The position numbers and the translations under genes are program-made. The notes beneath the pieces were generated by a model that searched no databases, was not told the origin of the DNA, and saw only the letters and a list, made by a program, of their open reading frames with translations. Below are positions 90 through 62,700 of a stretch of 64,000 bases of DNA, in pieces. Within the stretch, counting starts at the first letter, position 1; each line of letters begins with the position of its first letter. Source of the DNA: Amoebophrya sp. A120 (taxonomy: Eukaryota > Protista > Dinoflagellata). The DNA is taken from NCBI GenBank assembly GCA_905178155.1, contig CAJINV010000004.1, positions 9,096,300 to 9,160,299 on the forward strand, in the 5' to 3' direction.

Positions 90-1590
90 GCGTTCGGGAA
101 ACAGACACAAACTTGGGGCAGAATGACTCCGCCAACACCTGGGTCGGAAAAGGGATCTTCATATCCGCCGAAGAAAAAAAAGAACTGCTGCGGCCGGAAA
201 GGCGAAATCAGTACAACCCGAAACGGCCGGACGAGTTCCATCGAATGCACCCGACTCTGTGGCTAGATACGCTGGAACGCGTGCCGATGCGGAAGGAAAA
301 CCATTTAGGGGAGGAATTTAGCCTAGCGTTCCATTCGGACCCGGTGTACGACTTACTCGACAGCCACAGCGAGGGGGAGTCGGAGTCGATCTATCCTGAG
401 TAAAAACGTACCCACACCAGAGTCAGGATGAGGATTTTGCAACACAAACCTAGGAGTTTTGTGAGTCACGCATGACAAGGCGCACTATGCAGTGTAGTGC
501 AGGTTAGCAAGTGCAGCCGCATCACAGATTCATCTGCTGATCCTGTTCACAGCATGACAAATTTCAAAACACGATTGGAAATGGCTCTCATGGGGATGCG
601 CATTACAAGTCTTCCTGTCTTATCGAAGGAAAAAAGTGATACAGTTACACACTACTTCAAAAATACCGTATTTTTTTTGGGTTAAACTAAAACATTTTTC
701 AACACTCTCCTCGCGCTCGTACCTGTTGAACTTTGATTTGTATGTCATGAGAAAAGGGTATGTTTAATTAGCTACGGTTGCTTCAGTTGACTATTCTAGC
801 TAAGGAGGCCAAAATCCCGATATCGCGGACCACGCCAAGAACGTGCTCTTCAGTCCCAGCTCCTGCAGCCCGCTGGCCCCACCTGGTGGGGCCAGCAGGC
901 GTCATACCGGTGGTCTTCGTGCTGGACTTGCAATTCGGAACCGACATCCAAACGGCATGCCTCCTTAGCTAGCTAGTTCAACATACAACTGAAGCAACCG
1001 TTAGCTACCAGCAATTCTAAGTACTTAAACATCGTGCATTCAGAAAAGAAACTCTTACCTGTGCGTCAAAAAATTTCATTCTTCAACCCAAAAAAAATAC
1101 GGTATTTTTGAAGTAGTGTGTAACTGTATCACTTTTTTCCTTCGATATGTCTTTGCAAATCTGCATTACAACTCTGGTGTGGGTACGTTTTTACTCAGGA
1201 TACGATCCCCACCTACGTCATCGACCGCGTGCGCAGGGAGCAAAATGACATGTCCCAGCGGGTATGCAATGCAAAAGCATCGTACTAGTATAAATTGCAT
1301 TACAGATTAGCCCAGCATTACAAATTGAATTTGTAATGCTGATTCACCTTGAGAAAGAGACTTGTAATGCATAAATGCAATTACTACGAGTGCGATACTT
1401 TTGCACAGGATAGCGGGAGTGCAACGGAGCGACGGTCGAGCCGCTGCGAAACTTTCGGACCAAAAGTAAGGAGGGCGGCGGGACCGGGAGTAGTAGTACC
1501 ACGATGAAAAGCAGAATGGAGGTGTCGCATTCCACTTCGAAGGGAAGCGGGCACGCGTCGAAGCGACAGCGACAGGCGAGTCCGACGTAG
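90..1590 (+). CDS. Hypothetical protein 'gene X', copy 1, 3' part (exons ~90-391, 1208-1262, 1418-1590)
   Basis: ORF 83-403 (..SVRETD..SEGESESI) continues in frame as PTYVIDRVRREQNDMSQRECNG..QASPT* after removing elements 392-1202 and 1263-1412 plus one TSD each. Confidence 0.7.
392..1202. mobile_element. Family-B TIR introner containing a nested element
   Basis: TATCCTGAGTAAAAACGTACCCACACCAGAG...CTCTGGTGTGGGTACGTTTTTACTCAGGATA; TSD CGATC. Confidence 0.92.
621..1147. mobile_element. Nested 527-bp MITE with perfect 63-bp TIR
   Basis: TIR 621-683 / 1085-1147 (TATCGAAGGAAAAAAGTGATACAG...); TSD TGTCT; absent from the equivalent element 8658-8936. Confidence 0.95.
1263..1412. mobile_element. Family-C TIR introner (150 bp)
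   Basis: TATGCAATGCAAAAGCATCGTACT...AGTGCGATACTTTTGCACAGGATA; TSD GCGGG; empty site at ~8992-8996. Confidence 0.92.
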
Positions 1591-3782: not shown

Positions 3783-5029
3783 ATGTCGTCCGCGCCTTCC
3801 TCCTCAATCCGGTCCAGCAGCGCATCGCTGCGATCCCAGATGAATTATGCGAAACCCTACCCAGTGTTGGTGCAGCCGCCCGTGATCGCGGTCCAACACA
3901 CCATGCCCACCGCGCCCATCCCCCGCCCCTGGATCCACGGAAAAAACGACGACGTGTGTTGTGCCTGCTGGGATCGTATCAAATGCAAAAACGTCTGGGT
4001 CTGGAAGATTCTGACACTTGTCATGCACGTTTTGCATGAGCCATGATGTCTGTGATGCATACCCTAGCAATGCAGATTTTTTGAGGGCTTCTTGATGCGT
4101 ATTCCGCTTGACAGATGCCTTCTCAACGTAGAAAAAATTGCATTCTGTTTGTTACTCATGCAATACAGATTTTTTTAGATTCCAAAAATAGCATCACAAG
4201 TTGCATTCTTCCAGACCCAGACACTTTTGCAATTGATAGATCGCTGCACCGCGCTGCCGTCGACGGAGACGCGCGACATTATGGAGTTCTCAGATGTTAC
4301 ATAGTCAACTGTTACATGAAAATTGTAATGCAAGAATGGCAATAGTGAAAGGGAAAAGATTGCGCGTTTTGCATTACAGGTTTGGAGCAGATTCTAATGC
4401 TATCTAGCGCGTCGAGAACTTGTCATGCGAAGCAGCTTGATCATGTAGTAGATATTGTTATTGATGGCAATTTTGCATGACAAATTTATGTAACAGTTGA
4501 GAGTGTAACGTTTGGGAATCCCATAGACATGGCGACCAACGGGTTACTCCGGATAAACTTCACCTATTGGGACGACCGGCACTGCTGCGCGTGCGGGCCG
4601 CACCCGGGGGTGGCGGAACAGGTACAGGATCAGCACTGCCCGGAGGAGGTCATTCAAGCGGCCATTGTGAACTGCGGGGGGAATCCAGTAATTGAGCTAA
4701 AGCAGGAACCTGAGCAACTAGAGAAAATAAACGAGGAGCCCGGTCGCGTTCTCGACATCCGAAAGGAACTAATCGACATTTGGGACGAGTACCTTGGCCA
4801 GGACGGGATGCTCTTTCACTGCTGGGTCACCATCACCTACGACGGTGATGGCCGGCCGCAGAAAAACCGCCACTTTCGCCGTTGGATCGCGTTGGCGTTG
4901 ACCCCGGAGCAGAGCGCGCTGCTGGCGGGGGAACCCCACATCAGCGGGGACGTGGAGGTGGATTTGTGTTGCGGTGGGGTCAACGAACTAGCGCTGAGTA
5001 TGCACCCGCCCAATGGCATGCTGTTCTGA
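3783..5029 (+). CDS. Cys-rich family protein, copy 1 (2 introners, internal in-frame deletion)
   Basis: MSSAPSS..CCACWDR|CTALPSTETRD|MATNGLLRINF..MHPPNGMLF; colinear with intronless paralog 29502-30425. Confidence 0.8.
3977..4238. mobile_element. Family-A TIR introner
   Basis: TATCAAATGCAAAAACGTCTGGGTCTGGAA...TTCCAGACCCAGACACTTTTGCAATTGATA; TSD GATCG. Confidence 0.92.
4280..4525. mobile_element. Family-D TIR introner
   Basis: TATGGAGTTCTCAGATGTTACA...TGTAACGTTTGGGAATCCCATA; TSD GACAT. Confidence 0.9.
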
Positions 5030-6727
5030 GTTCTCCTTTGGGGATGGGGGGTGAATAAATCCGAAAAATAACAAGAATACCGGACTGCAATATGAAAAAG
5101 AAAATGAATAAAATTGAGCAGAAGCATAAGGATAAGCGTGATAGGCACGCACTACGATTAGAATAGTACGCGCTGCCATGATACATCATAGCCATCTTGT
5201 TTTTTCTTGTGGAAAATGAACTACCGTGGACAATTTTTTTTTTTTTGACATTGAATACACAGGGGATTGACACATATATGTAATTTTTTTTCCGCAGACA
5301 GCTCTACTGTTGCGAGCAGTTTTCTGGTTTTTTTCGAAAACGTCGTTTCTAGTCTGTGCGAACCATTTAGATATTCACACTCGTTCTCACTTGATAGCTC
5401 TACCTTTTCTTGTATGAATTGCGCAGATAGAGATGAACCACAATAACAATATAAGTAGAAGCCGCACTCCAATTTTTTCGCAAGGCACATAATTCTTTCG
5501 TTTCTCTTTATTGTCGTCAACAAGAAGTAATTCTGCTTTTGTACTTGGATTTGTTTCACTTACTTTTGGGAATTTTTGTGCCTGAGGAGACGTTTTTTCA
5601 GGTTGCATGATCCCGAAATTGTAGCACGAAAAGAAGCAGAAGCAAAGCGCACTGGTTGATGTTGAATCAAGAAAAGCTGCGAATGACAACGAACAAAAGG
5701 AAAAGTGCTACGGTTATTTCACCTTGGTTTCGCTGCAGAGATGAGAAGCAAGAGCAAGATTTGTCCGCTTTCGTTTGATCCGGAAGCCAAGAACAATCTG
5801 CTCGACCATGATGCAGATCGGGAACAAGCCTGAGACAAGTCCATAGACAGATGCAGATACTACATCTCGTAGAACATAACGACGACGAGCAAAAGATCAA
5901 AGACGAGCCGCAACGTGAAAAAGGTCTAGTAGGATGGTATATTGTGACAGTTACTGGCAAGTAAGAAGCCCGCTCGTTGCGATCCGCCTTGTGTCTTATC
6001 GTGTATCGGAGTCGTGTGTTGCAAAAACAAAAAAGATCTACGTAGTCTCCAGTAGTGGCATATTGTCGTGACGGTGAAGATGAAGATCTAGTGTTAATGC
6101 GCAACTCGTCATCAAAGAGAAGAAGAAGAGCAAAAGCAACAGATTTCTATAAGTACTTCTGCTTCTGGTAGTTCGGTTAAACGAAAACAATCGAAGTCGA
6201 ACGCACATATTTGGCGGTCATTGATTCATGGTCGTGTCATCTGGTCGACCCGTCCTCTGTCATCGTGAACATTGAAGACTACAGCGGAGCCTCTAGTGTT
6301 TTGACGTACTAGATAAGCTTGTGCATGATTCGGCAAGATACTCTTGTTGCCCGCTTTTTCTACTTCTGCCTTACCAATAAAAATGAAATTTTGAATTTTC
6401 GCGGATGCTTTCCCTTTCTTGCCCTCAAGNCAAAAAAAAAAGCCAAAAAAACCCAGCGTTAGCCCCGCGCCGTTTTTATCTTGCGGGCGCCTTTTTGTAA
6501 AAACGCAGCAAACACGCAGACGCCAGAAAAATGCCGGAATCTCCGGATACAGTTGCGGCGTTTTTAGGCAAATTGCCCAAAATCACATAATCGACATTTG
6601 GGACGAGTACCTTGGCCCGGGCGGGATGCTCTTTCACAATGTGTTGTTGCACAGACATCATGGCCCATGCAAAACATGCATGACAAATCTCGCAATCTTC
6701 CAGACCCAGACATTTTTACGTTTGATA

Positions 6728-9169
6728 CGCCGGTGCATTTGACGATGTGAACGACATGGACCTCTCGGGTGCGGAGGATGAGGACCTCTTGCCCGGAGGG
6801 GTCGAGCAGGGTCCCCGCGCGGAATCCGAAACGGCGGTACTGAATCTGGACAAGATCCATTATCCTGAGTAAAAACGTCCCTACCCCAGAGTTGTCATGC
6901 AATTCTGCATGCTGAAGATGTTTCTCATGCGGAGCTCCATGACAAGCATTTACTAGTCGCGTTTCGGAGTTTGTCATGCTCCAATCAGCATGCTGCGCTA
7001 GATCTGTGATGCTGCTGCACTAGCTAAACAGGACCACACTACGAGGACAAACTTGTCATGCGAAACAACCACAGCTGGCTGATTTGTCTAGCAGATTGCC
7101 CATCTGGACTCTGGTGTGGGGACGTTTTTCCTCGCAATATCCATCCCAATCCGTTTATCAAGAACCGGGACCGCCTCTGCGACGCCATCATCAACTCGCT
7201 GAAGGCGATATCAAATGTAAAAATGTCTGGGTCTAGAAGAATCCGAACTTGTGACGCTGTCTCTGGATTCTGAAAAAAATTGTATTGCATGACCAGCAAG
7301 AGGGTCCAGTTTGTGCTACGCGGAGAGGGCATTTCTCATGCGGAAGGTGCATCAGGAAGCCCTCTAAAAGTCTGCGATGCTAGGTCATGCATTACAGGGA
7401 TCATGGGTCATGAGAAATATGCATGACAAATCTCGCATTCTTCCAGACCCGGACATTTTTGCATTTGATAGGCGACGTTGCCGCGCGGCGCGGGGAGGGT
7501 GAACCGGCACAGCATTTATGCATTGCAAAAATGTCTGGGTCTGGAAGGTTGGAACTTGTGATGCTAACTCTGGACTGCCCTTAGACCTCCGATGTGATGC
7601 TAACTCTGGACTCTAAAGAAATCTGCATTGCATGACCAGCAAGAGGAGTCCAGTTTGTGCTACGCGGGGAGGGCATTTGTCATGCGGAGTAGGCATCAGG
7701 AAGCCCCCTAAAAATCTGTGATGCTAGGTCGTGCATTACAGACATCCTGGGTCATGTAAAATCTGCACGACAGGGCTTGTATTCTTCCAGACGCAGACAT
7801 ATTTGCAATGCATAGCGTTCGGGAAACAGACAAGGACTTGGGGCAGAATGACTCCGCAAACACCTGGGTCGGAAAAGGGATCTTCATATCCTGTGTAAAA
7901 ACGTCCCCACACCATAGTTGTCATGCAACTCTGCATGCTTAAAATGTTTCTCATGCGGAGCCCCATGAGAAGCATTTTCTAATGCGGTTTGGAAATCTGT
8001 AATGCGCCAATCAACATGAGATACTAGATCTGTAATGCTGCTTAGCTGGCTCAAACAGCACTACACTACGCGTCCAAATTTGTCATGCGAAACAGCCAAA
8101 GCTTATGGATTTGTCTAGCGGATTTCCCATCTTGACTCTGGTGTGGGGACATTTTTACTCAGGATACTTCATATCCGCGGAGGAAAAAAAGGAACTGCTG
8201 CGGCCGGAAAGGCTATCAAATGCAAAAATGTCTGGGTCTGGAAAAGTGCAAGTTTGTCATGCTTGTCTGGCATGACTCGGGAATCTGTGTTGCATAGGCA
8301 CGAAAAGGCCCGCTTACCTGTCATACAAAAACAGAGTTTGCCATGCGGAATACGTAAGACATGGCAGCCAAAAAAATTGTCATGCATAGCTGCGTATTGC
8401 AGTGCGTCTATCTGTAACTTTTAGCATTACAAGTTTCCAGACCCAGACATTTTTGCAATCCATAAAGGCGAAATCAGTACAACCCGAAACGGCCGGACGA
8501 GTTTTTTCGGATGCACCCGACTCTGTGGCTAGATACGCTGGAACGCGTGCCGATGCGGAAGGAAAACCATTTAGGGGAGGAATTTAGCCTGGCCTTCCAT
8601 TCGGACCCGGTGTACGACTTACTCGACAGCCACAGCGAGGGGGAGTCGGAGTCGATCTATCCTGAGTAAAAACGTACCCACACCAGAGTCAGGATGAGGA
8701 TTTTGCAACACAAACCTAGGAGTTTTGTGAGTCACGCATGACAAGTCGCACTATGCAGTGTAGTGCAGGTTAGCAAGTGCAGCCGCGTCACAGATTCATC
8801 TGCTGATCCTGTTCACAGCATCACAAATTCCAAAACACGATTGGAAATGGCTCTCATGGGGATGCGCATTACAAGTCTTCCTGTCTTTGCAAATCTGCAT
8901 TACAACTCTGGTGTGGGTACGTTTTTACTCAGGATACGATCCCCACCTACGTCATCGACCGCGTGCGCAGGGAGCAAAATGACATGTCCCAGCGGGAGTG
9001 CAACGGGGCGACGGTCGAGCCGCTGCGAAACTTTCGGACCAAAAGTAAGGAGGGCGGCGGGACCGGGAGTAGTAGTACCACGATGAAAAGCAGAATGGAG
9101 GTGTCGCATTCCACCTCGAAGGGAAGCGGGCACGCGTCGAAGCGACAGCGACAGGCGAGTCCGACGTAG
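6728..9169 (+). CDS. Gene X copy 2, 5'-truncated, 6 introners
   Basis: Continuous spliced frame AGAFDDVNDMDL..LDKIH|PNPFIKNRDRLCDAIINSLKA|TLPRG..HS|VRETD..GIF|ISAEEKKELLRPER|RNQYNPKRPDEF..SESI|PTYV..QASPT*. Confidence 0.7.
6861..7139. mobile_element. Family-B TIR introner
   Basis: TATCCTGAGTAAAAACGTCCC...GGGGACGTTTTTCCTCGCAATA; TSD TCCAT. Confidence 0.9.
7209..7470. mobile_element. Family-A TIR introner
   Basis: TATCAAATGTAAAAATGTCTGGGTCT...AGACCCGGACATTTTTGCATTTGATA; TSD GGCGA. Confidence 0.92.
7517..7814. mobile_element. Family-A TIR introner
   Basis: TATGCATTGCAAAAATGTCTGGGTCTGGAA...CATATTTGCAATGCATA; TSD GCATT/GCGTT; internal 20-bp duplication. Confidence 0.9.
7887..8166. mobile_element. 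Family-B TIR introner
   Basis: TATCCTGTGTAAAAACGTCCCCACACC...GGTGTGGGGACATTTTTACTCAGGATA; TSD CTTCA; empty site at ~157-161. Confidence 0.92.
8214..8464. mobile_element. Family-A TIR introner
   Basis: TATCAAATGCAAAAATGTCTGGGTCTGGAA...CATTTTTGCAATCCATA; TSD AAGGC; empty site at ~199-203. Confidence 0.92.
8658..8936. mobile_element. Family-B TIR introner
   Basis: TIR of about 31 bp; TSD CGATC. Confidence 0.92.
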
Positions 9170-11357: not shown

Positions 11358-12585
11358 ATGTCGTCCGCGCCTTCCTCCTCAATCCCGTCCAGCAGCGCGT
11401 CGCTGCGATCCCAGCGGAATTATGCGAAACCCTACCCAGTGTTGGTGCAGCCGCCCGTGATCGCGGTCCAACACACCATGCCTACTGCGCCCATCCCGCG
11501 ACCCTGGATCCACGGTAAAAACGACGACGTGTGTTGTGCCTGCTGGGATCGTATGCATTGCAAATATGTCTGGGTCTGGAAAAATTGGAATCTGTATTGC
11601 GTGTCCTGCACTCCTGTAAAATCTGTATTGCGTGACCGACAAAAGCGCTAATTATTTGTCATGCAAAAACGCAGTTTCTCATGCGCATTACATATGAGTA
11701 AGCGTCCTGAAAATTTGTCATGCTTGGCTGCTCTCAGGAGTTGGCTCAATCATCGCCACTTAGCATCACAAGTTTCCAGACCCAGACATATTTGCAATGC
11801 ATAGATTGCTGCACCGCGCTGCCGTCGACGGAGACGCGCGACATTATGGAGTTCTCAAATGTTACATTCTCAACTGTAGTTACATGAAAATTGTAATGCA
11901 AGAATGGCAAAAGTGGAAGGGAAAAGATTCCGCGTTTTGCATTACAGGTTTGGAGCAGATTATAATGCTATCTAGTGAGTCGAGAACTTGTCATGCAAAA
12001 CAGCTTGGTCATGTAGATGTTGTTGCCAATTTTGCATGACAAATTTATGTAACAGTTGAGAGTGTAACGTTTGGGAATCCCATAGACATGGCGACCAACG
12101 GGTTACTCCGGATAAACTTCACCTATTGGGACCGGCACTGCTGCGCGTGCGGGCCGCACCCGGGGGTGGCGGAACAGGTACAGGATCAGCACTGCCCGGA
12201 GGAGGTCATTCAAGCGGCCATTGTGAACTGCGGGGGGAATCCAGTAATTGAGCTAAAGCAGGAACCTGAGCAACTAGAGAAAATAAACGAGGAGCCCGGT
12301 CGCGTTCTCGACATCCGAAAGGAACTAATCGACATTTGGGACGAGTACCTTGGCCAGGACGGGATGCTCTTTCACTGCTGGGTCACCATCACCTACGACG
12401 GTGATGGCCGGCCGCAGAAAAACCGCCACTTTCGCCGTTGGATCGCGTTGGCGTTGACCCCGGAGCAGAGCGCGCTGCTGGCGGGGGAACCCCACATCAG
12501 CGGGGACGTGGAGGTGGATTTGTGTTGCGGTGGGGTCAACGAACTAGCGCTGAGTATGCACCCGCCCAATGGCATGCTGTTCTGA
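11358..12585 (+). CDS. Cys-rich family protein, copy 2
   Basis: Near-identical exons to 3783-5029; two introners. Confidence 0.8.
11552..11803. mobile_element. Family-A TIR introner, different subfamily from 3977-4238
   Basis: TATGCATTGCAAATATGTCTGGGTCTGGAA...CATATTTGCAATGCATA; TSD GATCG/GATTG. Confidence 0.9.
11845..12084. mobile_element. Family-D TIR introner
   Basis: Homolog of 4280-4525; TSD GACAT. Confidence 0.9.
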
Positions 12586-32272: not shown

Positions 32273-32437
32273 TTTGCATTGCAACAGCATCGCGCTAATA
32301 TATATAAATTGCATTACAAGCTTCTGACTTAGCATTGCAAATTGTTTTGGTAATGCGGATGCGTGAACAAGAAAAAGATTTGCTATGCATGTAAAGCAAT
32401 TAGTATAAGTACGAGTGCGATGCTTTTGCGCTACATA
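32273..32437. mobile_element. Degenerate family-C element
   Basis: TTTGCATTGCAACAGCATCGC...GTGCGATGCTTTTGCGCTACATA; TSD CTTGA/CTGGA; removal joins ..WERRL to EELRQF.. Confidence 0.65.
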
Positions 32438-44948: not shown

Positions 44949-46139
44949 ATGACGGACGACGCTGCGGCCAACCTGGATGAGCAGACCCAGAAGCAGATGG
45001 AAGAGCTGCGAAATGAGGCAAAGCAAGCACCGGGGGTCGGTAAACTGGAATCTTTGCAAGACTTTGCAAACGCGGAGTTCGGTTTGGAACAAACGGGCCC
45101 CTCCGCCGCGACGGCAGGAACAAGCAGTTCCAGCGGTTCACAGAACACTTTTTACAAGAAAACCATGACGTTGACCAAGCAGTTTTCCCGACTCCGCAAG
45201 TGCCGCCGGGACGGGAACTGCTTCTACCGGAGCTACCTATTCGGTATGATGGCGGAGATGTGCAAGAATGTGGGGTTTAGGAAGCACATCAAGGCGATTC
45301 TCGCGCAGAGCTTGAGCTACTGCGAGAGCGCGGGGTACGACAAATTCGCACTGGAGGAGATGCACGAGGAAGTCACGGAAAGTACAATATCACTATGATT
45401 TACATTTACTATGCTTGTTGAGATGTACTCGTAGCAGTTAGGCTCTCATACGGAATTTTCATTCCCAACCATTAACATTCTCCTGTTGCGCCTCTGTGCA
45501 ACAAGATTTCACAGTCTAATGCGGTGATGAAATCAAGTTGCAAACTCGATACCAGTTGTCGACAACCTTTTCCCGGACGATCAGACAGGGGAACTCGACA
45601 TCAGCAAAGTAGAACAACTCTTCCAGTCTGACGACCTCAATTACCCCATCTGCTTCGCGCGGTGCCTCACCAGCAGCTTCATGAAGCACAACAAGGACGA
45701 CTTCCTACCGTTTTTGACGACGCACGACACCGTGGAAGCCTTCTGCATGAGCGAGGTATACTTACTACTGCATCAAGGGGGTAGGCTTGTGCTTGAGATT
45801 CCTGTTTGTTGCGCTAGCGCGTAACTTTTTTTACAAAAATGTGAATACTTCTGTAGGGTAGCTTCCTGGTGGTCGTGTCAAGGCTCCATGGGTCGTGACA
45901 CAAATGTAAAACAGGTCGACCCCTTGTGGAAGGAGGCAGACCAGCTGCAGATACAAGCGCTCGCGAGCTACTTCAAAATCCCCATTCGGATATTTTACCT
46001 GGACCAGAGCGAGGGAGATGCCTGCACCGTGCACGAGATGCTGTTCAACGAGAGCGGGGGCGGTGGAGAAGAGGACAGTCCGACCGCGGTAATCAACTTC
46101 TTGTACCGACCAGGACACTACGAACTGTTGTATGTGTGA
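44949..46139 (+). CDS. Otubain-family deubiquitinase (OTUB1-like); GT-AG introns 45382-45555 and 45756-45914
   Basis: Catalytic motifs RRDGNCFYRS and LYRPGHYELLY; spliced frame VTE|IVDNL..FCMSE|VDPLWKEADQLQI. Confidence 0.92.
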
Positions 46140-48411: not shown

Positions 48412-49812
48412 ATGGCGATCAAGCTTTCCGCCAAGGAGGCTGCCCAGTTCGTGCAGGAGGCCCAAAAGTCCGCCTCCAAAAACTCCGCTACCCCGAACCC
48501 GTCTCCGACCGGACAGTTCTACGGGAAGTATGACTCCCTGTTCGAGACCTCCGTCTGGTCGGTCAACGAGAAGAAGTACACCCGGTACCTGCGCAAGCGC
48601 CAGGCCCGCCCCTCCGCCGCCGAGAATCCCCGGATTCTGCACATTGCGCAGGAGTACGCGGGCTTGCTGTTCGGGAAAAGCCGGGACCGGTTGAAAAAAA
48701 TCGAACAGAAATACGACGCATCAAATGCAAAAGTGTCTGGGTCTGGAAGAGCGCGCGACTTGTCACGCAGCTTTTCCATGACCCATGAGGTCTGGAATGC
48801 AGGAGCTAGCATGACAGATTCTGTGCGATCTCTCTCATGCTTATCCTGCATGAGAAACTCCCTCCAGAATTGGCCAAAACTGGACGACTTTTGGTAATCA
48901 TGCAACACAGTTTTTTGCATGCTTCAGATTTAGCATGACAAGTTGCATTCTTTCCCGACCCAGACATTTTTACATTTGATACGACGTGAAACTTGAAACG
49001 ACCGACACGGTGCTTGACCAAGCCGCGCTGGTTCTGTCCCCATCTTCCCCCCAGGACGAGATGATAACCGGCAGTGCGAAGAACAGCAAGTCCACAATTG
49101 GTGGAACGCCGGCCGCTTCCCCCGGCACCACAGCGAATTCGGTCGGGTCCCCGATGGATGTGGACGGCGAATTGAGCAACAAGAAAATCAAGGTGATCGA
49201 GTTGAAAATCGTCGGCGGGAACGACTTGGACGTGCCTCTGATCGTGCAGGAGTTTGTCTATGCGCAGGAAAACTACGACATTCCCGACTTGGGGTTTGTG
49301 CAGTCGCACCTGCAGGTGTTGAAAGACATTTCCAGGTCGACAAAGGCGAATATCACGATCGAGAAGGAGAAAATGAGTGAGAAAGAGGAAGCGGGGGAGA
49401 TGGTATCATAGGCCGGTTTCTTTGTTGTAGCATTCAACTTCAAACACAAACTCATATGGTTTAGGCTTCTTCTGCATGAGGATGAGAATATGAGAAAGCA
49501 CTTGTTCTGTACTGGGTTCTATCTTCAAATAAGTTTCTCGTGCACAATCACACCAAAAATGATCAGGTCGAGAAAGACCCCGCCCTGCTCGTTCAAAGCG
49601 GCGATATTAACCAGGCTGCGATACAACAGCAGCAAAAACCAGCCAGAAAAAGTTTCCTGCGGATTCGGGGACCGCGTCCGTGCGTGAACCTGGCGGTGGA
49701 AGCGTTGGATACCCACATGCTGTACTTCAAAATTTCCAAGGAGATGGAGGCCCAAATGCTACAGCTGAACGCATGTCGACAGGCGATGTTAGCACAAATG
49801 AACACGGTTTGA
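48412..49812 (+). CDS. KH-domain RNA-binding protein (FXR/FMR1-like); one introner and one GT-AG intron (49403-49566)
   Basis: KH-like ILHIAQEYAGLLFGKSRDRLKKIEQKYD|VKL; C-terminal IRGPRPCVNLAVEALDTHMLYFK resembles the end of FMRP KH2. Confidence 0.65.
48719..48981. mobile_element. Family-A TIR introner (CAT start variant)
   Basis: CATCAAATGCAAAAGTGTCTGGG...CATTTTTACATTTGATA; TSD CGACG. Confidence 0.9.
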
Positions 49813-50728: not shown

Positions 50729-53700
50729 ATGCAGGCCGACCACACGACTACCCGTCGTATCGCGCCGGCGACCAGGCCGCCATCAAATTCCACCGCAGCG
50801 GGAGGTGGAAGTAGAGTGTATTCGCGGCACCCGGGCTTGCGATTGGTGACGTCGAAATCTTCCTCAACAGACGATCAAAATCATTCCAAAGACAGCAGCA
50901 CGGTTGCCTCTGGCTCTGGCACGGAGCGTGAACCACGACGAGATAAAAACAGGACCACCTGCTCCGGCACAATGGAAAGCCACGAAACAGCGACAGTTCC
51001 GTTAGAGGATGCTTTTTCTAGTTTTCTCTCTTCGCATATGGAAGCGTCAGGTTTGAAATCGACAAAGTTGAAATGATTTGTGATGCATAAAACGGATGCC
51101 AGTTGTAACACAGCTTCCAAGTGGCACATGACAAATTTGGGTGAAACCGGAAACCAGTTTGTCTTGCTGTTTGGGTAAGGACGACGCCTTTGTCATGCTA
51201 CGATAGCAGCTCTATCGCAGACCGCAAACAGGCTGACAGTCGGCCTCACTTGCCACCCCTGCAACAGAGGCACTTCATGCCAGGCAATTTATGCATGACA
51301 AATCATTTCAACTTTGACGATTTCAGTCCTGACACATCCATATCGCAAAGGAGGAGAAGGATGCATGGACATCAGCTCGAGCCGGTTTCGGAAGACGAGC
51401 CGGTGAAGTTTCTATGCTCTGCAACTATTCGTACTAATTCTAATTGCAATCATGCATGACAAATGTTGTTTCTTAGGCAAATCAGCATTACAAACTCCAG
51501 TTTTCCTTCTGAAAAAACTTGTATTGCAATTCATACTAGTACGATACTTTTGCAATGCATAATTTCTGACTGACGACAATGACCACAAGAACTCCGTCTT
51601 CCAGCAAGACCATAGTGCTCAACATCTCGCAAGCAGCAGTGCGTTCGGCTTTGGCAAAAACAACAGCAAGCAGAGCAGCCGGGGGTTCAATTCTTCTTCG
51701 CGAACCAGTTCTCGGAATTCTTCGAAGATCAACACCAATAGCAGGTATGATCCCTCCGCGCACAGCAGCAGCGACGAACAGTCGCTGGCCTCTTCTGGTG
51801 CGTATTACAGTACTCGGGCGGAGCACCAAGTGGCAACCACTTCCGCGTCGCAGTCGGAGAGTGAAGGGGGAGGCTTCAATTATATTCGAGGGGCCGCGTC
51901 AGGAGGTGTTCTGGCTGCGGGAAGCAGGAGGCCGGGAGCCTCTGCTAGTACTTCCGACGTGACTACAATGTCAACTACCTTCTCTGCGTTGCGACCCATG
52001 TTGCAGACTGTGAGCAAACAGTTGGAGGGATCATCTGCTGGTGGTATAAATGTTGAAGAAGCAGAAGCAGGTGGGATGAACAAAGATAAGCAAGAGGCAG
52101 CACCAGCACACCTTTTCCAGCCGCAGCCCGAGCCGGCACCTATGGTGATTAAGGATAGGGTGTTTCAATTCCTGTCCTCGAAGACGACCGGTGGAGGATT
52201 CGCAAAAATTTTTGACGACGATTACATGACGGATAGGAACACGAACGGACGAGAACCACAAGCGGCGGCCACGAACAAGCATACAACCCGATTTATCGAG
52301 CAGACTTCAGGGGCTAGTGGTAGGGACCACGCAGCTGCATCTTCAATAAAGATGAACGACCGCGCAGACAAGAGTTCGCCAACCAAGCAAGAGAACAAGC
52401 AGCACGGCAGGCTGGACGTCGGTCTACTCGCGAAGATGGCAGAGGTGGTGAGTAGCAGCGAAGAGCAGGGTGATGATGTGGTGGTCAACAAGCGAATGGG
52501 TGCATCAACAAGTAGAAGTACTAGATCAACATCGTCATCTACAAGGCCAAGAGGTCTGTCATCTTCGCAACAGCGCCCTGCAAGGGCCGAAGGTTCCTTT
52601 TCCGCGACATCTTCAGCCCACCTCCGCGGGCCGCGTGAAGATCCTGACCCGAAGCTGGTAAAAGAGATTTGGTTCGAGAACAAACCGCGCACGCCTTCAC
52701 CGAGAAGACAGTCGGAAATAACCGGAAGAACGGACAGGCGCCAGCAGCTACCGAATATTGAAGATCACCACGACCTGCTGGGGGACTGGCAGCTCTGGGA
52801 CCATCTATCGTCCAACCCGCGTTACCGAAGGAAATCGCTTGCAGCTTCCGGGGAAAAGGACGAGGACACGGCATTCTTGGAAGATCGTCGTCGGCGTCTA
52901 CAACTTCAGGGCGAAAATAACAATGGCCGCGAAGGAGCGACAGCGTCGCAAAGTCAATCTAGGGACGAGATAAATAAAACCAGGACGAACGGATCGGGAG
53001 ATGAAGGCGGAGCTTCTGTTACGGCATCATCTCCAGAAGATGCCAAGGAGCAGTTCCGGCAGCTCGTGCGCAATGCGGTCCGCAACCCTCTGGGCCGTGC
53101 GGTGAGCGAACGGCTAGGGATCGAGCAGGAGTTCTACGCGGACATAATGTTGGACAGCAGCAGGCAGAGTGCGTCGATGCAACTCGATTCGTCGCACACA
53201 CATTTTTCTGCTCGAGGAGCTTTATCCGGAACAAGAACATCTGGCGCACCCAACTCCCACTGGAAAATTCGCAACGTAGTGCAGCTACGGGAAAGGAAAA
53301 AGTCGCTCTTTCCTCATGTTGACATTACGAGAAGTAGTCCGAAAAATAAACTCCGGAGCCAGCAAGGTGGACCACATCTTCAAGGGACGCACAGTGCAGC
53401 GACAAGTCGCGAAGAAGGAGAACAACCGAAACATCATGACCAGCTGCACCATCAAGTACTAGATGCCTCTCGTCAAGATGAACCTCAAAGTAGAACTCAA
53501 CATCAGTCGCATAGTAATATGAATTCTACTAAAACCGTGCAAGCGGACTGCGGCGGCACGGAGAACGAAGGGGGCACTGGGTCGTCCGGGGAAACGGAGC
53601 TGACCTGCGGCGCCACCGGCTCGGTGTCCGCCCGGGGAGAGGAACAGTTGTTGCCAGCAGCAGACACTGCAACTGCAGTGCCTAACCCGACGACAGCGAA

Positions 53701-56700
53701 TGAAGACAGCTGGTCGCCGCCGTTGCGAGGCATACCAGAGGGCCAGGACGAGAACAACAACAGCTCGTCGCTGGTGTTGGAGTCGCCCGGGTTCCCTGGT
53801 GGGCGAAGAGAACCGCAACAGGGGGAACAACTCCATCAAGGAGCTTTCTCCAGTTCTTCTTCTTCTTCCCAGCAAGGTGGCGCAGAAGATGTGCCAGCCC
53901 TGCACGGTAATTCTACAGCCACGGCCACAACCAGTAAAAATCCAACCGGAGAAGTTCTTCCTCTTGTTGACCAAGAAAACAACTATTCTGACCGCGCCAG
54001 TAACGTTTCGAAGAATACGGAGTTTTACCGCATAAACGCGGAAGATTCTCCCGGTACCAGTGAGGACGCGAGTATGCACAGCGACGAGTTTTTCCCCGCG
54101 AGCTTCTCCGCGGTAGAGTGTTTGGAGGACGCGCCGGTGGAATTGATGGAGCTGCGGTTGGCGGACGTTGCAGAGGACGAAGATCAAGAGGCTGCGCTTG
54201 CGCCGGAGGTTCTGTATGGAGAGGATAACGATAAAGCACCAGGCAACTCCTCGAGTTTCGCAGTCGCAATAGGAAATAAACAGCAAATTTTTCCAGGCAG
54301 TTCTCGAGAAGCTGAACCACCTCCGGGGCAGGACTACGTTGATATTTCAACCTTGAACTGCGTCCCTTTTTCCTTCAACAAACACAATCTGTTAGAAGAA
54401 ACGGTGCGGTTCGGCGGGAGGGAAGTGCTAAAATTATCAAAAGGAAAAATCCCCCCACCCCATATCGACATGGAAATCTGTGATGCCGGATTTGTGTACA
54501 CAAATCGGCTTTGCATTGTAGGAAGGCATCGCGGCCAGATCCCCAGGCTATGCAGGGGCGTATCGGTCTAGTTGTTCAGCATGGCAAACGGCTCCGCATT
54601 AGGCCCAACAGCATGACAAAGCGCCTCCATAATGGGGGCGAAGCTTTTGCCCTTGTCCTCTTGCAAGACAGACGTGATTTGTGACCTCAAATCAGCAACA
54701 CAAATTTTCGGAAACATGCCTTCTCGATATGGGGAGGGGGGATTTTTCCTCACAATAAAAATACCCGGAAGATTTTCCGACGATGACCAACGTCACCGAG
54801 TTATCCTGAGTAAAAACGTACCCACACCAGAGTCAGGATGGGGATTTTGCAACACAAACCTAGGAGTTTTGTGAGTCACGCATGACAAGTTGCACTCTGC
54901 AGTGTAGTGCAGGTTAGCAAGTGCAGCCGCATCACAGATTCATCTGCTCATCCTGTTCACAGCATCACAAATTCCAGCCCACGATTGGAAATGGCTTTCA
55001 TGGGGATGCGCGTTGCAAGTCTTTCTGTCTTTGCAAATCTGCATTACAACTCTGGCGTGGGTACGTTTTTACTCAGGATACGAGTGCCAGGTCTGGCTGG
55101 AAAAGTACCTGACCCCGGACGCGATAAATTTTGAAGATCCATGCTTTGGAAGCTTGCTGATGCAGGTGTTCGCGCTGTACCGAGTATTTCTGCACAGTGT
55201 GGAGGTGAGGTGTACTAGTAATAGAGATACAGTTGGATTTGGAAAACTGAACAACGGACGATCAGTTTCTGCAGAATCGGCACCTGCCTTCACTAGTGGT
55301 TGTACAACCAGCAGCGTCAACTACAACGATCCAATTTTCCTTTCCGCAGCGCGACGAATCGAAAGGGGATTTCAGTGCACTCTGCTCGCTATGCATTGCA
55401 AAAGTATCGTACTAGAATAAATCGCATCACAAATCTTGGCAAGAAGAAAAGTGGAATTTGTAATGCTGTTTTACCTTAGGAAGGAGATTTGTCATGCATA
55501 TTTGCAATTAGTACGACTACGATACTTTTGCCCAGGATACTCGCGCTCCTGTCCGAGACAAGGTTGAAGCAGGGGATAAATGCGAGGGATTGTCATGGTA
55601 GGAACTTTATCAAATGCAAAAGTGTCTGGGTCTGGAAGAATGCAACTTGTGATGCTGCATTTGGATTCCAAAAAAATCTGTATTGCAGGAGTACCAAAGG
55701 AAATGCAATTGTTGCTACGCTGAGAAGGCATTTGTCATGCGGAATACGCATCAAGAAGCCCTCAAAAAATCTGTATTGCTAGGGTATGCATCACAGACAT
55801 CATGGCTCATGCACGACGTGCATGACAAGTGTCAGAATCTTCCAGACCCAGACACTTTTACAGTTGATAAACTTGTTGCACTACATGCTGGACGACGAGT
55901 TCTTCGCTCCGGCAGAGGGTATGATTTCTCATCAAAAGGAAGCCGGTTCTAGTGCTGCTGTACCCGCCGATCGTGCTTTTTCAACATCGCAAGGCGAGTA
56001 CCAGCTTCAACAACTCGTGCCAGTAATGAGGAACAGCAGTGTGGACATCGATTCCAGCAGCACCACAGGAATTCTGCTTGATCCCACTGCTCCGACCACC
56101 TCCACTGCAGCCGCCCATCTACTTCTTCTCGCCCAGCAACTACAGAAAAACTTCCTGCAATTCGTCCGCGAGGAGGCGCTGCCCCGGGTGTTGCAACATG
56201 CAAGCCTGACCTCGAAATTCCTCAACAACCCCGAGGCGACCGTGTGGGGCGCGCCGTTTGCCGCGTGCATCTTGTCAAACAGCTTCCTGGACTTTTCCGA
56301 CGTAATTCGGACGCACGAACTTTTCGACCCGGCTGCAAACTTCAACGAACCAATTGGCCCGGCACGGGACCGGGCGCCGTTACTGTCCCGGCTGCTGCGG
56401 CTGGTGTTGCTGAAATGCAGCCGTGAGGTGGATAATTTTTCCTGCTCAGGTAGAAGTTGTTTATCGCAGCCTTTACTGGGTTCTCTTCTCTCTACTGCGG
56501 AAAGTAGGAACGCAAAAGCTTTTGCGACTCCTGTTGCTGGGGACCAGCAGTTCGCAACGGTCGTAACCGAAAACAAAAAGGAGCAGGTGATCGCAACGTA
56601 TCTTCCCTTGATCATCCGCATCCTGGACCACCGAACGTTTACGGACGGAATCAATTGGATCACGACCGGGGGTGTGGACTGGTGCGAAACGCCTCTGCTG

Positions 56701-59700
56701 TTGGCGATCGAGTTGGAATCGCTGGAGTTGACGGAAAGAATTCTGTATGAACTGCAATAGTATCGTACTCGTATAAATGCATTACAAGTTTCGATTTCCT
56801 CAGCATGAGAAACAAAATTTGTAATGCAGATTTGCCTTGGGAACAAGATTTGTAATGCAAGACTTGCATTTATACGAGTGCGATACTTTTGCACAGGATA
56901 TCCTGCTCCACCCGAGTTTCGACTGCGAGAAAAATCTGATAATTCCCGCCAGGGAGCGGTTTGTGGACTACGCACCGGTGGCGACGAGGACGTCGAGTGC
57001 AACTAGACCAGCGTTGTTCTTCGGCGCGTTTTCTACTTTATCCGCGACTAGACTCGATCTGAACCCGGTGAGTCGTCTCCTCGAGAAGCTCTCAGTCTGT
57101 AATCAGAGCTCTGCCTCTGTTCACCTAGCAGCACCGCATGATTTTCCTCCAACGGAGATGCAGCACCGCACGCGTGTCCTGGCGGAGATTTTGGAGTTGA
57201 TTCTAGATGCCTCCGGCTACGAAATGTTCCGGCTCGCGAAGATGGAGCGGGCGGAAGTATCTTCAGGTGCAAATAGAAATCAGATGCTCAACATCAACTA
57301 CATATGCAGTGCGAAAGTATCGTACTCGTATTAATGCAATAGCAATACAAATTTCCTTAGCATGAGAAATAAAATTTGTAATGCGGATTCACCTTTAAGA
57401 AAAAAATTTGTAATGCATGATTGCAATACGAGTACGATACTTTTGCACAGGATGCTACAAGACAGACAACCAATTCACTCCTGACGACCAGCATCAGGCG
57501 CTGCTGTCCACCTCCCCGAGGACATCACCACACTTCGCCTGGTACGACCGTCGGGTTTTGGCGATGAACATGTCAGCGCTGCGCCTCGCGACGCTGTGCG
57601 AGCGATACGAGCAAAGGCGGAAATTCGTGAAGTACTACAGCAGCACAATATACCACGAGAATGAACTTGACGAACAAAGGTCGTCAAACCTCGCGCCTGG
57701 TATGAGTAACGACACATCCAACCGGAAATCCAAATCCGTAGTTCCGGACATGAAGGCGATTATGGGCGGGCAGATCCAGTCCACGGAAGTTTTCGCAAGC
57801 AAAATTTTTCACAACGTCCGCAAAACGCACCCGAAAAACAAGGAGAAGGACCTCTTCCGCGAGGCCGTTCTGGAAGCGTTGGAGTACCGAGCGGCGACCC
57901 TGAAACGGAGGGCGCGGCCGAGGGTTTTGCGGCTGGAGATGAAGCAGGAAAGTTTGAAAATTTTGGGGAAGGATGAAACGGCTTCTGCTTTGAAACCGGC
58001 AGAGAAATTGAAGTTGGACATTTATCCACAGGGACGTCGAGACCACGTCAGGAATAATTCGGAAGTCTTCAAGAACAAAATAAGCAAGGATTTCGATGCA
58101 GGTGCTGGGAAAATTATCAAAATGAAAATCAACAAGCGGAACAAGCGAGGGCGGAAACCCCAACGGGACGAGGGAAGCGAAGTAGATGGCAACATCATGC
58201 TAGAAGAAGTTGATATCCTCGAGGGCGGGTATGAGGACGAAGTCCGAGATGCTACGGAGCACGCCGGGGATAAGAAGATGGAAGGAACAAACACATCACT
58301 GAATGAAAAATCCGCAGACGACTACTATCTCCAAAACGAAATCATCGAAAACCTGAAAAGCAGCGATATCGTCGACGTAGCAGGAGCTACGAATGAAGAT
58401 AATTATCTCCTGCAAACGAAAAAGGCAAAGAAGAAGCTGGCCCGAAAGCGCAACAAGGCCGACCACTGGCGGAGTTTGAACGACAGCAAGACGAGTCAGC
58501 TGACCACGCAGGAGTCCACCTCCGAGCTTGGTTCTTTTTCAATACAGGTGGAAGAGAGCCCGAGGCGGCGGGCAGAGGATTTGCTGAACCGGTACCGCCA
58601 GGAGGTACTTGGGGAGCAGGCAGAGGTACTGCGGGCAAGTAGACCAGAGAAGGAACACATCGTAGTCCCAGAGGTATCGTCGGAGGGGGAACAAATTGTG
58701 GAACGGGAACGGGAGAATCGTGAAGATGCTGAGCAGCACGACTATTCCTCCCTGAACGTCACGGATCAGGAGTCCATCGGCCCTTCAGCCTCCTTTGACG
58801 GGGGAGACGACTTCCGCGAGCAGGTGGAACACGTAGGGGCAGCAGTACTAGCGCAGCAAATTAATAATACGGCTGGAGGTGCCACCACCTCAGCCACGAC
58901 TACAGACCACCAGCCAGCATCGTCGTCGTCGTCGATCATCCTGAATATTGATCCGAAGGATGTGAGTGCGATACTCGCGGATGGCGAGGACGGTGAGGAA
59001 AACAAAACCAAAACCACTGCGATAGTTAAATCGCCAACCCGCGGTATGGACAAACTCTTCGGGTGTTTCTCTCGGTTGGTCTGCCTCGGGCAAGCGCGAC
59101 CAAACCCACTGAAGGAATTGCTGGCGCAGGTAGAGGGGAGAGAAATAAATGGTGTTTCTTCATCTGCGAACAAGAACGACAAAGACTCATTGTCACAGCG
59201 GCGATCCGCCAGCGCAGACATTAGCGCAAGAAGAGATCGTCTGCGAGAAGATGAACAAGAACGAGAAGATGCAGGAGCAATAAACAATTCGTCTGCAAAA
59301 AGGCGCAGCAAGAGCAGCAAGCCGTGGCTCGAACAAGGCAGTAGAGCGGAACAAACAACAGCATCTTCATCTTCAAATCGCGGTAGAGCCCATGACCGGA
59401 GCAGAGACTACTACAAGCGGATCGATGGGTCTGCGAAGCCGGTCAGCTTCACCACCAATCTGGACGACAATTTTTCCACCAACTCCGACGGCGCGGGAGA
59501 CGAGGACAGTGCGCTCGAAGAACTGGATCGGCTGGCGCTAGCCGAAGCGCTTGAGGAAAACTACAAGGCGCCTTCTGGAAGATCAGATGTACTGGATAAT
59601 AATTCACGACGTCAAGAGAGGTACGATCGCAAGAACCTACTCATCCTGCAAAACACACTGTTAGTACCTTCACAGGATAAATCACGCGGAACATCATCAA

Positions 59701-62700
59701 GCAATATTAAACCCAGCAGTAGGAGAACCAGCAAGAATCAGCAAAAGCGCGCGTCGCGGGCGGGGTCTTTGGAAACCAGTGTGATTGAAGAGGACCAGGA
59801 GTTCTATCCGCCAGAAGATTACGACGAGGATCTTCAACTGCATTTTCATCCGATGTCCTCAAATAAAACTGTCGGCTCATCTTCAAAAAGCGGCCACGAG
59901 GATCATCATCTTGAAAGCAGCTACAAGGTTAATATCAACAAATCCCGGGGGTCGTACTCGTACACTACTAGCGGCACAAATTTCGGTCGGGTGATGCAGA
60001 AGAAAATGCTCCAGGCGGAGACAGACGACGAGACGAGCGAGATTTCTCGCATGCTGAACTACACAACGGAGGAAGACACGTCGACAGTGTTAGACGGGGA
60101 AGAGTTCTTCTCTCACCAGAATCTAACGGATGAGCAAGAAACCGACAACAACAAGGACACCACGATAGAAGGACTTAGTGCCACAACTGCAGGACCTCCG
60201 AGAGCGAGCGCGGCGGAGGCTGTCGGGTCATCATCGACTTCAAAGGAGGGCCGTGAGGACGGGCAGGAGAGAATCTCCGGCACCGCAGCTGGCTGTGTAG
60301 GGCGGGCAGGCAACAACTATCACGAGCAAGCGGGGGGGTCCTCGTCTAGCACGGCGAAGACGAGACCCGGCGCCTTTTCTACAAGTACAACAAGGAGACC
60401 TGTTCTCGACAACAAGAAACGGGGGCTGACCAGTGAAGAGACATCGCTCTTGAAAGAAATCACCAGTGGATGGGAAAACATAACAAGCGACAGGAACAAA
60501 GAAGAGACCACAAAGCAAGTGGATCTTCTCCTGCAAAGCTACCCAAACGACCTGCTCGTTCTGCAAGATTCCCGCGGGACTGAGATCGTCAGGGTCGCCA
60601 GCCACCATTTGGAGGGCGACATCAGCCTGCAGAACTGCGACTTGCACGGTGCTGTGAATCAATTGAAAAGCCAGCAAAGCTTCCTTCCAAGAAACCAACT
60701 CCTCGTAGCACCGAATCTGGTGGTCGACAGCAACAGGAACATGACGGCGCTGTCGTCGACGAGGAACAGATCTGCTGCATCCTGCTCCGAGATGAACCAA
60801 ACCTCCTCCACTATGCGAGGAAACAATTTTGTCACGGTTTACCTCCTTCGGCCGGAGCACGGGGTGAGACTGCGGTACGACCTGGACGAGGGAATTCTCG
60901 GGGCAAGAGACATCAACTTGTCGGAGGAAATATGCATTCGCAAAAGTATTCGTACGACGTATAAATCGCGTGACAAATTTTCTCAACAAGAAAACTGGAA
61001 TTTGTCATTCCGATCGAGGTAAGAAACACAAACAGGATTTGCAATGCGTAGCTGCAATATTTTTTTTCTACGAGTGCGATACTTTTGCAGTGCATAGGAA
61101 GTTTCCGCAAAGGAACTGTTCCAGAAAGGGATGAAAATCTACGACTTCCTATCGTATATAGAAACGTCCCCATCCAAGAGTTTTCAAATCTGTGATGCTA
61201 GAAACAGCATGATATGCTAGATCTGTGATGCTGCTGAACTAGCTCAACAGGGTTACACTACAAGGACAAGGCTGTCATGCGAAACAACCATAGCTGGTTG
61301 ATTTGTCTAGCAGATTTTCCAACTTGATTCTGGTGTGGGGACGTTTTTACACAGGACACTTCGGACATTTCGAAGAGATCTCGTCTTGTTCCGCGGCGCA
61401 GGCGGGGGCTGGCGGGATGATAAACGATGATGCGGCACCAGCCCGACTGGAGGTAGGTCATCATACCCTGAGCGGAGGAGGAGGTCCTCCTGTCTTGTCT
61501 TCCAGTAGTGGAGATCTTCATGCGGCCTCCACAAGTGGAAGTGGCGGTGCAAACGTGACGGACGGGGCAAGCGCAAGAACTACATCCTCTACCACTTCCG
61601 CGACGTCTTTGACCCCAGTGGTCGAACCTCTCGCCCTGTTGGAAAAAAACCTGCAGGAACGGTGGCGGGCGGGGACAACAATATCAAGCAGTTCGAGTTG
61701 TAGACCTTTGTGGATCCGGTTTCAGGTCCAGCCGGTGCGGAAGGTATTGACGCTTGCGAAGAAAATATGCAAGAAAAAAACTATGTGGGTGTAAGTCTGT
61801 GATGCAGAAATAAATGCAAAACTGTTACACTTGTCATGCTGGATCCGCGTCATAGGCTACGTTCAGTACGTGTTTCCACGTACTAGCTGCGCATGACAGA
61901 TTTTCCCTGTAATGCAAAACGAATTTGTGATGCTGCTCTTCCTTACAAAGTTACACTAGCACAGTTTTTTTCTTGGATAGAAAGCGGACAAATTCCCGTT
62001 TTCCTACCTCCACCGCAATGACCCGTCGCAGTTTGAGGAGAGCATGAGCAGTGCTGCATCTAGTAGTAGAGTTGCGTTTAACAGTTCTCATGGGGAACAA
62101 GAAGTACAAATAGACAGAGACACCAGAGAACGCGAGCTGTTACAGTTGCAAGCGTTGCACGGAAACCGTGTTTTTTCTGCGTCCGTTGAACAGCAGCAGC
62201 TACGGGCAAGAAATAGTAACGATGAAAAGAAAGAGAATATTAAAGACGGCAGCAATCCGAATCCGCAGATGAACAACATTCGCCCGGGGGACCGTATCGA
62301 GGCGTTTACCATGCCGGATGGAAAAAGGTACCGGTTCGACAGTGGCGAGTACGCGCACCGACAGATTCTCGAGCGGATTCGACCGTTGGAGGTGGAGTTT
62401 GTGGAGGAGTTTGGGGACCAGTTTTCGTTTTTGCAAAGTGTGCAGAAATTCGTTTCTTCCGGTTCCTCAAAACAGAAATTCGTTGCGTCCTCCAACGGCA
62501 GTTGTCGTGGTTTCTTTCACGTCGCGCCCATCTGGAACCCGTTTGCGGCGCCGAAACCAGCAGGAGGAGTTGTAGATGACCTCGTAAGAACTACCGGCAG
62601 CGAAGCAAAGGAACATCTTCAAAACGACCAAGACGGGTCGGCGTTCATCTCTGTTGAGACCCAAATCAGCAAACTCCGCTCCGAATTCAATATCCGCTTG

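Follow-up and report, generated by a model that had tools for sequence, protein, structure and literature searches.

TAT...ATA introner elements in Amoebophrya sp. A120 and their removal together with one copy of the 5-nt repeat: a probable cut position and a candidate mechanism

Comparison with Described Introner Systems

This study concerns the inverted-repeat introner elements in a 64,000-nucleotide (nt) stretch of the genome of the dinoflagellate Amoebophrya sp. A120 (GCA_905178155.1, contig CAJINV010000004.1, positions 9,096,300 to 9,160,299), which is called the window below. Introner elements of this strain were described by Farhat et al. in 2021 (PMC7789003). They have TAT-N7-AAA inverted repeats (TAT, seven variable bases, and three or more A), a hairpin, a mean length of ~240 nt, and many families. 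A direct repeat of 3–5 nt lies at their borders, given as 5 bp in the legend of Fig. S19. No transposase was described inside them, their removal is supported by RNA, and the mechanism was left open. More than 60% of the 66,565 RNA-supported A120 introns are non-canonical. Nearly all spliceosomal proteins and U2, U4, U5, and U6 were reported for A120, U1 was not detected, and the minor small nuclear RNAs were reported absent (PMC7789003). U1 is present in a relative whose introns are GT-AG (PMC12005148). The A120 introners were assigned to several transposon classes, including a terminal inverted repeat (TIR) family with integrase-like, Copia/Gypsy-related open reading frames (ORFs) (PMC12130899).

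The nonconventional introns of euglenids (PMC12501133, PMC11282704) also have a TIR hairpin, repeats resembling a target-site duplication (TSD), and no GT-AG ends. They are cut at a set spacer from a paired motif, the 3′ spacer is longer, and an origin from miniature inverted-repeat transposable elements (MITEs) was proposed. They differ in their CDG/CHG motif and in the purine after the 3′ cut, and belong to an unrelated lineage (PMC12501133); their signature, N3CDG...CHG-N5-6 with R after the cut, was not found here, where the ends are TATS-N6-AAA. The TIR/TSD introners of Polarella, Symbiodinium, and Aureococcus (PMC9860276; bioRxiv 10.1101/2020.10.14.339549) are likewise DNA transposons that create introns. 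They carry or recruit GY/GA and AG sites, whereas no recruited bases are detectable here. One Polarella introner class has a phase distribution of 51:23:24, a phase-0 excess similar in size to that found here (PMC9860276), and the phase bias of such introners was explained by splice sites that are carried or recruited. IS3EU and GingerRoot (PMC10045372) share TA..TA termini with the present elements, but their TSD is usually 6 bp, whereas it is 5 bp here. An integrase-like enzyme would fit the A120 TIR introner ORFs of PMC12130899.

The window holds 43 complete TAT...ATA elements, 42 outer and one nested (621–1147), and four truncated halves, as counted from an end profile and BLAST of the elements against the window. 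Seven of the 42 outer elements are copies within recent segmental duplicates, and 35 elements were left after the duplicates were collapsed. The outer elements are 145–323 nt long, except for one composite of 811 nt. Exact TAT and ATA termini were found in 38 of them, and the 5-bp repeat was perfect in 27, had one mismatch in 11, and was worse in four. The end consensus was TATS-N6-AAA, with C or G after TAT, and an A run was present at both ends in 35 of the 42. Clustering of the interiors at 62% identity gave five multi-member clusters and seven singletons, that is, 12 sequence groups. Hairpin folding (12 shuffles each) gave z < −2 with the two ends paired in 34 of the 35 collapsed elements, and elements folded individually had z of −8.9 and −7.4. 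A previous examination of the window from its letters and ORFs (the sequence-only reading) had proposed about 40 elements in at least seven families, sharing TAT/ATA termini, a hairpin-forming TIR, and a 5-bp repeat, and these counts bear it out, except that the element at 16665 has no matching left repeat (duplication breakpoint).

The element anatomy exceeded chance. Counting TAT..ATA pairs no longer than 400 nt that have an exact 5-bp repeat and 10 or more of 20 TIR matches gave 24 in the window and 0, 0, 0, 0, and 1 in five shuffles. When inverted ends with direct repeats were scanned at repeat lengths of 3–8, TAT ends arose solely at length 5 (14 of 15 matches).

Judged by sequence, the window elements are the published A120 introners, already known since 2021. 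They share the genome (three proteins, below), the motif, the repeat, the repeated families, and non-GT-AG removal, seen at seven elements. The sequence-only reading had called them similar to introners reported in Amoebophrya; such introners are indeed reported, and the exact A120 proteins and published motif indicate the same case, not a merely similar one. We regard it as nearly certain that this identity and removal at the RNA level hold jointly. In PMC7789003 the border position is described as unknown or variable and the motifs as highly diverse, whereas one rule, the element plus one repeat with a cut after base 4, fits the junctions checked here. As the earlier reading also said, the removal machinery is not identified in the published text found. 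In a text-level search with subscription journals mostly outside it, no paper was found that names the catalyst, cut position, or phase bias for A120, and Figs S19–S23 of PMC7789003 may bear on the cut.

Removal of the Element with One Repeat Copy

The features that carry the evidence on removal are as follows (elements are listed without strand):

11552..11803, element with a repeat mismatch at base 4; gene model P0001 retains the left copy, which fits a cut after base 4 or 5
11845..12084, element removed with 5 nt in P0001
26838..26988, element removed with 5 nt in gene model P0002; empty sites in three paralogs
27051..27305, element removed with 5 nt in P0002
27402..27663, element removed with 5 nt in P0002; empty sites in two paralogs
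29502..30425, + strand, element-free paralog showing empty sites
35169..42639, + strand, 2259-codon frame opened by removing 37753–38017, 38607–38875, and 39997–40141 (plus 5 nt each)
48719..48981, element with left end CAT; RNA-type contig skips 268 nt, the element plus 5 nt
49403..49566, + strand, ordinary GT-AG intron, absent from the contig that also skips the 48719 element
50729..64000, + strand, 3617-codon frame, open at the window end and interrupted by 11 elements
Elements 1–6 of this frame: 51037–51342, 51413–51561, 54435–54757, 54802–55080, 55390–55539, 55608–55869
Elements 7–11 of this frame: 56746–56900, 57303–57454, 60931–61096, 61150–61358, 61766–61979
61766..61979, element with a repeat mismatch at base 5; partial gene model P0005 retains the right copy, which fits a cut no later than base 4

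An ungapped empty-site match was found in the window for nine of the 42 elements. All nine fit removal of the element plus 5 nt only, and the empty sites always hold one repeat copy. Four of these matches fall in the paralog 29502–30425, so the agreement with this intronless copy, noted in the sequence-only reading, was reproduced. Six junctions in public gene models also match removal with 5 nt only (two elements in P0001, three in P0002, and one in P0005). P0001, P0002 (named Amoebophrya sp. A120), and P0005 are exact substrings of window frames spliced in this way, and transcript alignments were the basis of the A120 gene models (PMC7789003, section 25). The seventh junction is in RNA-type contig 18 of run X9, which skips 48711–48978 (268 nt, the element plus 5) and a GT-AG intron; the RNA status of the run was inferred by the data tool, and the contig itself also lacks that GT-AG intron. 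At these seven RNA-derived junctions the sequence left after removal equals the pre-insertion sequence.

Among the raw RNA reads of run X6, 58 were placed on the window, all on element sequence. Those at 48894–48944 (51 reads) show a related element with one foreign flank, and X6 otherwise does not match the window. The element family occurs also in RNA of the X6 sample.

The region 50729–63999 contained no stop in 3617 codons once the 11 elements were removed with 5 nt each, and keeping any one of them gave a stop. Decayed elements are located inside this stop-free 10.8-kb frame. The frame alone sets the removed length only modulo 3, and removal with +2 and +8 nt also works in one mode. The sequence-only reading had stated that deletion restores the ORF in all genes traced. 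This holds for the 11 consecutive elements, but the elements at 30487 and 33088 lie outside any restored frame. Mismatches between repeat copies were synonymous in 15 of 29 cases versus 23–28% expected (p = 0.0007 to 0.006), a synonymous excess that reflects purifying selection, as expected with one copy translated.

Transposon Origin of the Elements

A pattern search of metagenome contigs found at least 151 loci in the 18 of 64 parts of the collection that were scanned; 149 loci (486 kb) were stored, and full flanks were present in 80 of the 151. Related elements occur in these loci, with best matches 68–95% identical for 39 of the 42 window elements, and the loci showed no gene-level match to seven window proteins. 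A repeat-blind search of the 149 loci gave 293 elements, with a perfect 5-nt repeat in 223, one mismatch in 30, and a perfect 6-nt repeat in none; shuffled loci gave no elements. The base composition of the repeat was flat, in keeping with the arbitrary sequence noted earlier, and the 5-nt repeat is a TSD without visible sequence preference.

The elements have the features of MITEs: a TIR, a TSD of fixed length, short non-coding sequence, and empty sites with a single TSD copy. No transposase was found by Pfam in 20 window frames. Seven longer TAT..ATA spans in the loci contained no frame above 151 codons, except for one chance span. Rfam gave 0 matches.

Cut Position and Phase

A perfect repeat hides the cut, and an imperfect repeat therefore reveals it. 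The repeat copies of the 11552 element differ at base 4, and P0001 carries the left-copy residue, which allows a cut after base 4 or 5 only. The copies of the 61766 element differ at base 5, and P0005 carries the right-copy residue, which allows a cut at or before base 4 only. Because P0001 and P0005 bracket it, a single fixed cut would lie between repeat bases 4 and 5. A fixed cut after repeat base 4, giving an intron of the form N-TAT-S...S-ATA-NNNN, is probable in our judgement.

The phase of the elements was biased. After 118 of 307 locus elements without a confident strand and frame call were dropped, 98 of the remaining 189 were in phase 0, versus 46 and 45 in the other phases (p = 4.6 × 10−7). 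The first repeat base stands on codon position 3 in these 98, and a cut after either base 4 or base 1 puts them in phase 0. The same direction was seen for either strand and for each of three end classes. None of the repeat positions departed from the codon-position expectation at p < 0.05. Local base-preference models predicted 37–43% for the favoured phase versus 52% observed, and were worse than phase alone in cross-validation; the 187 sites leave room for many weak preferences. Sequence models account for only part of the phase-0 excess. Across the five repeat bases, the mismatches were distributed 12/8/8/5/8.

The published splice motifs were compared with these cuts. The top nine A120 junction types in Table S4 all start N-T (PMC7789003). 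Picking the equivalent cut nearest to GT-AG placed 45% of junctions in 13 listed types, versus 37% in Table S4, while a fixed cut after base 4 placed 21% and other fixed cuts 0–18% in the listed types. Table S4 was rejected as evidence on the cut because the GT-AG-closest choice within the repeat, an effect of the aligner, reproduces its types better than any fixed cut. An aligner's choice among the equivalent cuts within the repeat reproduces the diversity of splice motifs that was published.

Splice Motifs

GT-AG was not readable in any of the 42 elements, at any cut across the repeat and on either strand, and GC-AG was readable at some cut in four (two distinct). This agrees with the absence of a consistent GT or AG in the sequence-only reading. 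In the perfect-repeat set (n = 187) there were nine GT-AG and five GC-AG. The 48719 element has no equivalent cut that is GT-AG or GC-AG. Splicing at cryptic GT-AG sites had been proposed as a check: frame-compatible pairs lie within 12 nt of 18 of the 35 elements, and none of them was used at the checked junctions. The ends are neither U2-type (GT/GC...AG) nor U12-type (RTATCCT donor with AT-AC or GT-AG ends), the first base being free and the base after TAT being C or G. Three ordinary donors in the RNA contigs are GTACA, GTATA, and GTATC, which are similar to N-TATS.

Proposed Mechanism and Alternatives

Our preferred reading, with a probability of roughly one half, is that a modified, U1-independent spliceosome excises the elements from pre-mRNA, with cuts measured from the terminal hairpin. 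An insertion duplicates five bases of any sequence, in either orientation to the gene. In the transcript, the ends are predicted by folding to pair into a long stem starting with UAU/AUA. At the seven junctions, removal restores the pre-insertion sequence. The two imperfect repeats and the phase excess suggest a 5′ cut 1 nt before the stem and a 3′ cut 4 nt after it. The putative intron would share +2 T and +3 A with normal donors, with the +1 G and the AG both dispensable; the RNA-confirmed 48719 element, which has a mutated end, would start with GC under this cut. The chemistry would be that of U2/U5/U6, with a hairpin-recognising factor in place of U1 and AG scanning. We favour the modified spliceosome because the intron start would be donor-like, most spliceosomal parts are kept, U1 was undetected, and the GT-AG relative has U1. 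The sequence-only reading had left RNA splicing and DNA excision side by side. RNA-level, non-GT-AG removal of the element plus one repeat is retained from it, and the DNA branch is disfavoured.

Several observations weigh against the U1-independent spliceosome or the cut it would use. An in-frame GT...AG pair hugging the 11552 element is unused in P0001, whereas its use would be expected of an ordinary spliceosome. Among 221 oriented elements (window duplicates and two decayed elements left out), the first intron base is G in just 62, and the last two are AG in 21. Both orientations occur within plus-strand genes, with splits of 23 versus 12 in the 262-nt family and 12 versus 8 in the 150-nt family. 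Hairpin introns of Euglena with a similar, 3′-longer geometry were reported as circles, not lariats (PMC12501133, PMC11282704). The RNA contig spans a single element by direct observation, and the cut position comes from one junction per side in transcript-built gene models. A cut varying between elements fits equally well, and a transcript of a paralog could have guided the P0001 model. A mutation-direction test on 14 non-synonymous mismatches found 6–9 of 14 consistent and favoured no cut. The phase excess fits a cut after base 1 as well, and does not reach significance for the window elements by themselves (14 of 31, p = 0.12).

The alternative that survives best is a separate structure-guided endonuclease and ligase cutting beside the stem, as proposed for euglenid introns. 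We hold it as a tentative possibility because of the lack of a base requirement in the repeat, the GT...AG ignored at 11552, and the likeness to euglenids, where the Euglena N3-CDG...CHG-N5-6 arrangement also has a 3′ spacer 2–3 nt longer and circular products were reported (PMC12501133, PMC11282704). The use of both orientations and the stable end-pairing described above would also suit it. The donor-like 5′ end suggested for the intron speaks against this enzyme, and no relevant Pfam match was found in the 20 window frames. To our knowledge, the bulge-helix-bulge or IRE1-type loops required by known RNA splicing endonucleases cannot arise from arbitrary flanks. A second, ruler-like splicing route seems rather unlikely; in it the UAU/AUA stem of any of the transposons would set one cut 1 nt upstream and the other 4 nt downstream, neither junction would need particular bases, and the catalyst would be a non-spliceosomal cut-and-ligate enzyme that arose independently of that of euglenids.

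A hairpin between direct repeats is a classic setting for template-switch artefacts. All junction evidence is derived from complementary DNA, and the RNA-type runs also contain contigs joining element ends to flanks. It is nevertheless very improbable that the skips are reverse-transcriptase template switches across the hairpin, with dead genes or retained elements. Any one of the 11 elements by itself stops the 3617-codon frame, yet the exons are stop-free despite several decayed TIRs and repeats. The enrichment of synonymous changes among the repeat mismatches and the share of non-canonical introns among RNA-supported A120 introns (PMC7789003) also argue against it.

Precise DNA-level excision in transcribing nuclei, like that of ciliate internal eliminated sequences, would suit the DNA-transposon anatomy (TIR and target duplication) and the empty sites in near-identical duplicates, but those sites are equally explained as pre-insertion states. 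The RNA-type contig without the element also lacks an ordinary GT-AG intron, and a cut offset to the 3′ side of the transcript is unexpected from a symmetric transposase. Empty sites had been proposed as something to look for in genomic sequence. Among the matches listed, the eight longest X1 DNA contigs (~39–44×) all have an end within an element, and an empty site is bridged by none of them, with 1071 joints beyond these eight. We know of no separate germline nucleus in this parasite, so a DNA loss would be inherited. DNA-level excision is hardly credible on these grounds.

Splicing at N-TAT...ATA-N ends (the element plus 2 nt), near GT-AG and leaving a one-codon footprint, was examined because the frame fixes the length merely modulo 3, and although it is frame-compatible in eight of nine genes and would account for both the phase excess and the published table's NT-AN types, it creates a stop in 35169–42639 and is refuted as the main route by the six junctions in P0001, P0002, and P0005 and by the RNA contig, which leaves it a poor prospect beyond a minor isoform.

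Other Features of the Window

The remaining elements, element parts, and ordinary introns are as follows:

1..89, element truncated by the window edge, right half present
392..1202, 279-nt-family element with a nested insertion, repeat CGATC, 811 nt
621..1147, nested 527-nt TAT...ATA element, 79-nt TIR, repeat TGTCT
774..1001, second nested TIR element, 228 nt, non-TAT ends, repeat TAGCT, without an observed empty site
1263..1412, 150-nt-family element; empty site 8957–9036
3977..4238, 262-nt-family element, repeat GATCG; empty site in the paralog 29502–30425
4280..4525, element, repeat GACAT
6650..6727, truncated element (right end), located at a rearrangement junction
6861..7139, element within gene 6726–9166
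7209..7470, element within gene 6726–9166; one equivalent cut is GC-AG
7517..7814, element, repeat mismatch at base 3
7887..8166, element; empty site 122–201
8214..8464, element; empty site 164–237
8658..8936, 279-nt-family element
16665..16948, copy of the 22928 element; left flank foreign, at a duplication breakpoint
18305..18382, truncated element (right end), duplicate of 6650–6727
18516..20119, five elements (18516–18794, 18864–19125, 19172–19469, 19542–19821, 19869–20119) in a 99.7% duplicate of 6431–8848
20313..20503, truncated left part of a 279-nt-family element
20708..20853, 150-nt-family element, repeat mismatch at base 4
22928..23211, element in a PPR-repeat gene (frame 22504–24727)
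30487..30636, decayed element, no clear repeat, outside any restored frame
32273..32437, element with left end TTT, in frame 31989–32985
32495..32731, element with a decayed repeat, in frame 31989–32985
33088..33283, element outside a restored frame
45382..45555, + strand, ordinary GT-AG intron, skipped in an RNA-type contig
45756..45914, + strand, ordinary GT-AG intron, skipped in an RNA-type contig

The composite at 392–1202 is nested three deep: a 279-nt element contains a 527-nt TAT element, which contains a 228-nt non-TAT TIR element with its own 5-bp repeat. After removal of the nested element with 5 nt, the composite was identical to 8658–8936 at 275 of 279 positions.

A family of cysteine-rich paralogs was found at 3663–5026, 11220–12582, 20511–21135, 26794–27920, and 29502–30425, each with its own element positions, and the element-free copy at 29502–30425 had no Pfam match. 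Two near-identical gene copies (93% upstream, 99% downstream) have unlike elements, 3977–4238 and 11552–11803, inserted at one shared site and flanked by an identical repeat; the element interiors are only 54–60% alike. This suggests gap-repair replacement, gene conversion from another copy, or double insertion at that site.

The 99.9% duplicate of 22927–23762 at 16664–17499 starts one base ahead of the element end, which accounts for the foreign left flank. Further duplication breakpoints cut elements at 6650, 18305, and 20503. Rearrangement may be favoured by element ends; alternatively, these breakpoints may be assembly errors. The duplication could partly be an assembly effect, because one duplicate borders the single N of the window.

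Among the 20 window frames, Pfam annotated PPR in two and otubain in one. A PPR-repeat gene lies at 22504–24727 and an otubain (Peptidase C65) gene at 44838–45395. No Pfam family was found in the four exons tested of the 3617-codon frame. Two protein searches with the full long protein of 50729–64000 gave no match, and a profile search returned two fragments alone. Public models cover this frame of 3617 or more codons piecemeal, with P0005 a partial model of 158 aa and P0004 a model of 1713 aa with an internal start. Genes with these introns appear fragmented in public annotation.

Implications for Introner Biology

The discovery value of the elements themselves is low, because they and the open question of their removal were published in 2021. 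One removal rule here replaces many splice motifs, and the predicted cut can be checked with RNA reads over imperfect repeats. A phase-0 excess without recruited splice bases is not obviously explained by the proto-splice-site model. If the ruler-like second splicing route is true, every insertion would be silent at the protein level, and the phase-0 excess would point to a codon-aware step in insertion or retention. A catalyst that is non-spliceosomal, or a spliceosome that ignores GT and AG, would, if true, be a new way to neutralise transposon insertions, and a catalyst so unusual might serve as a tool for scarless RNA excision.

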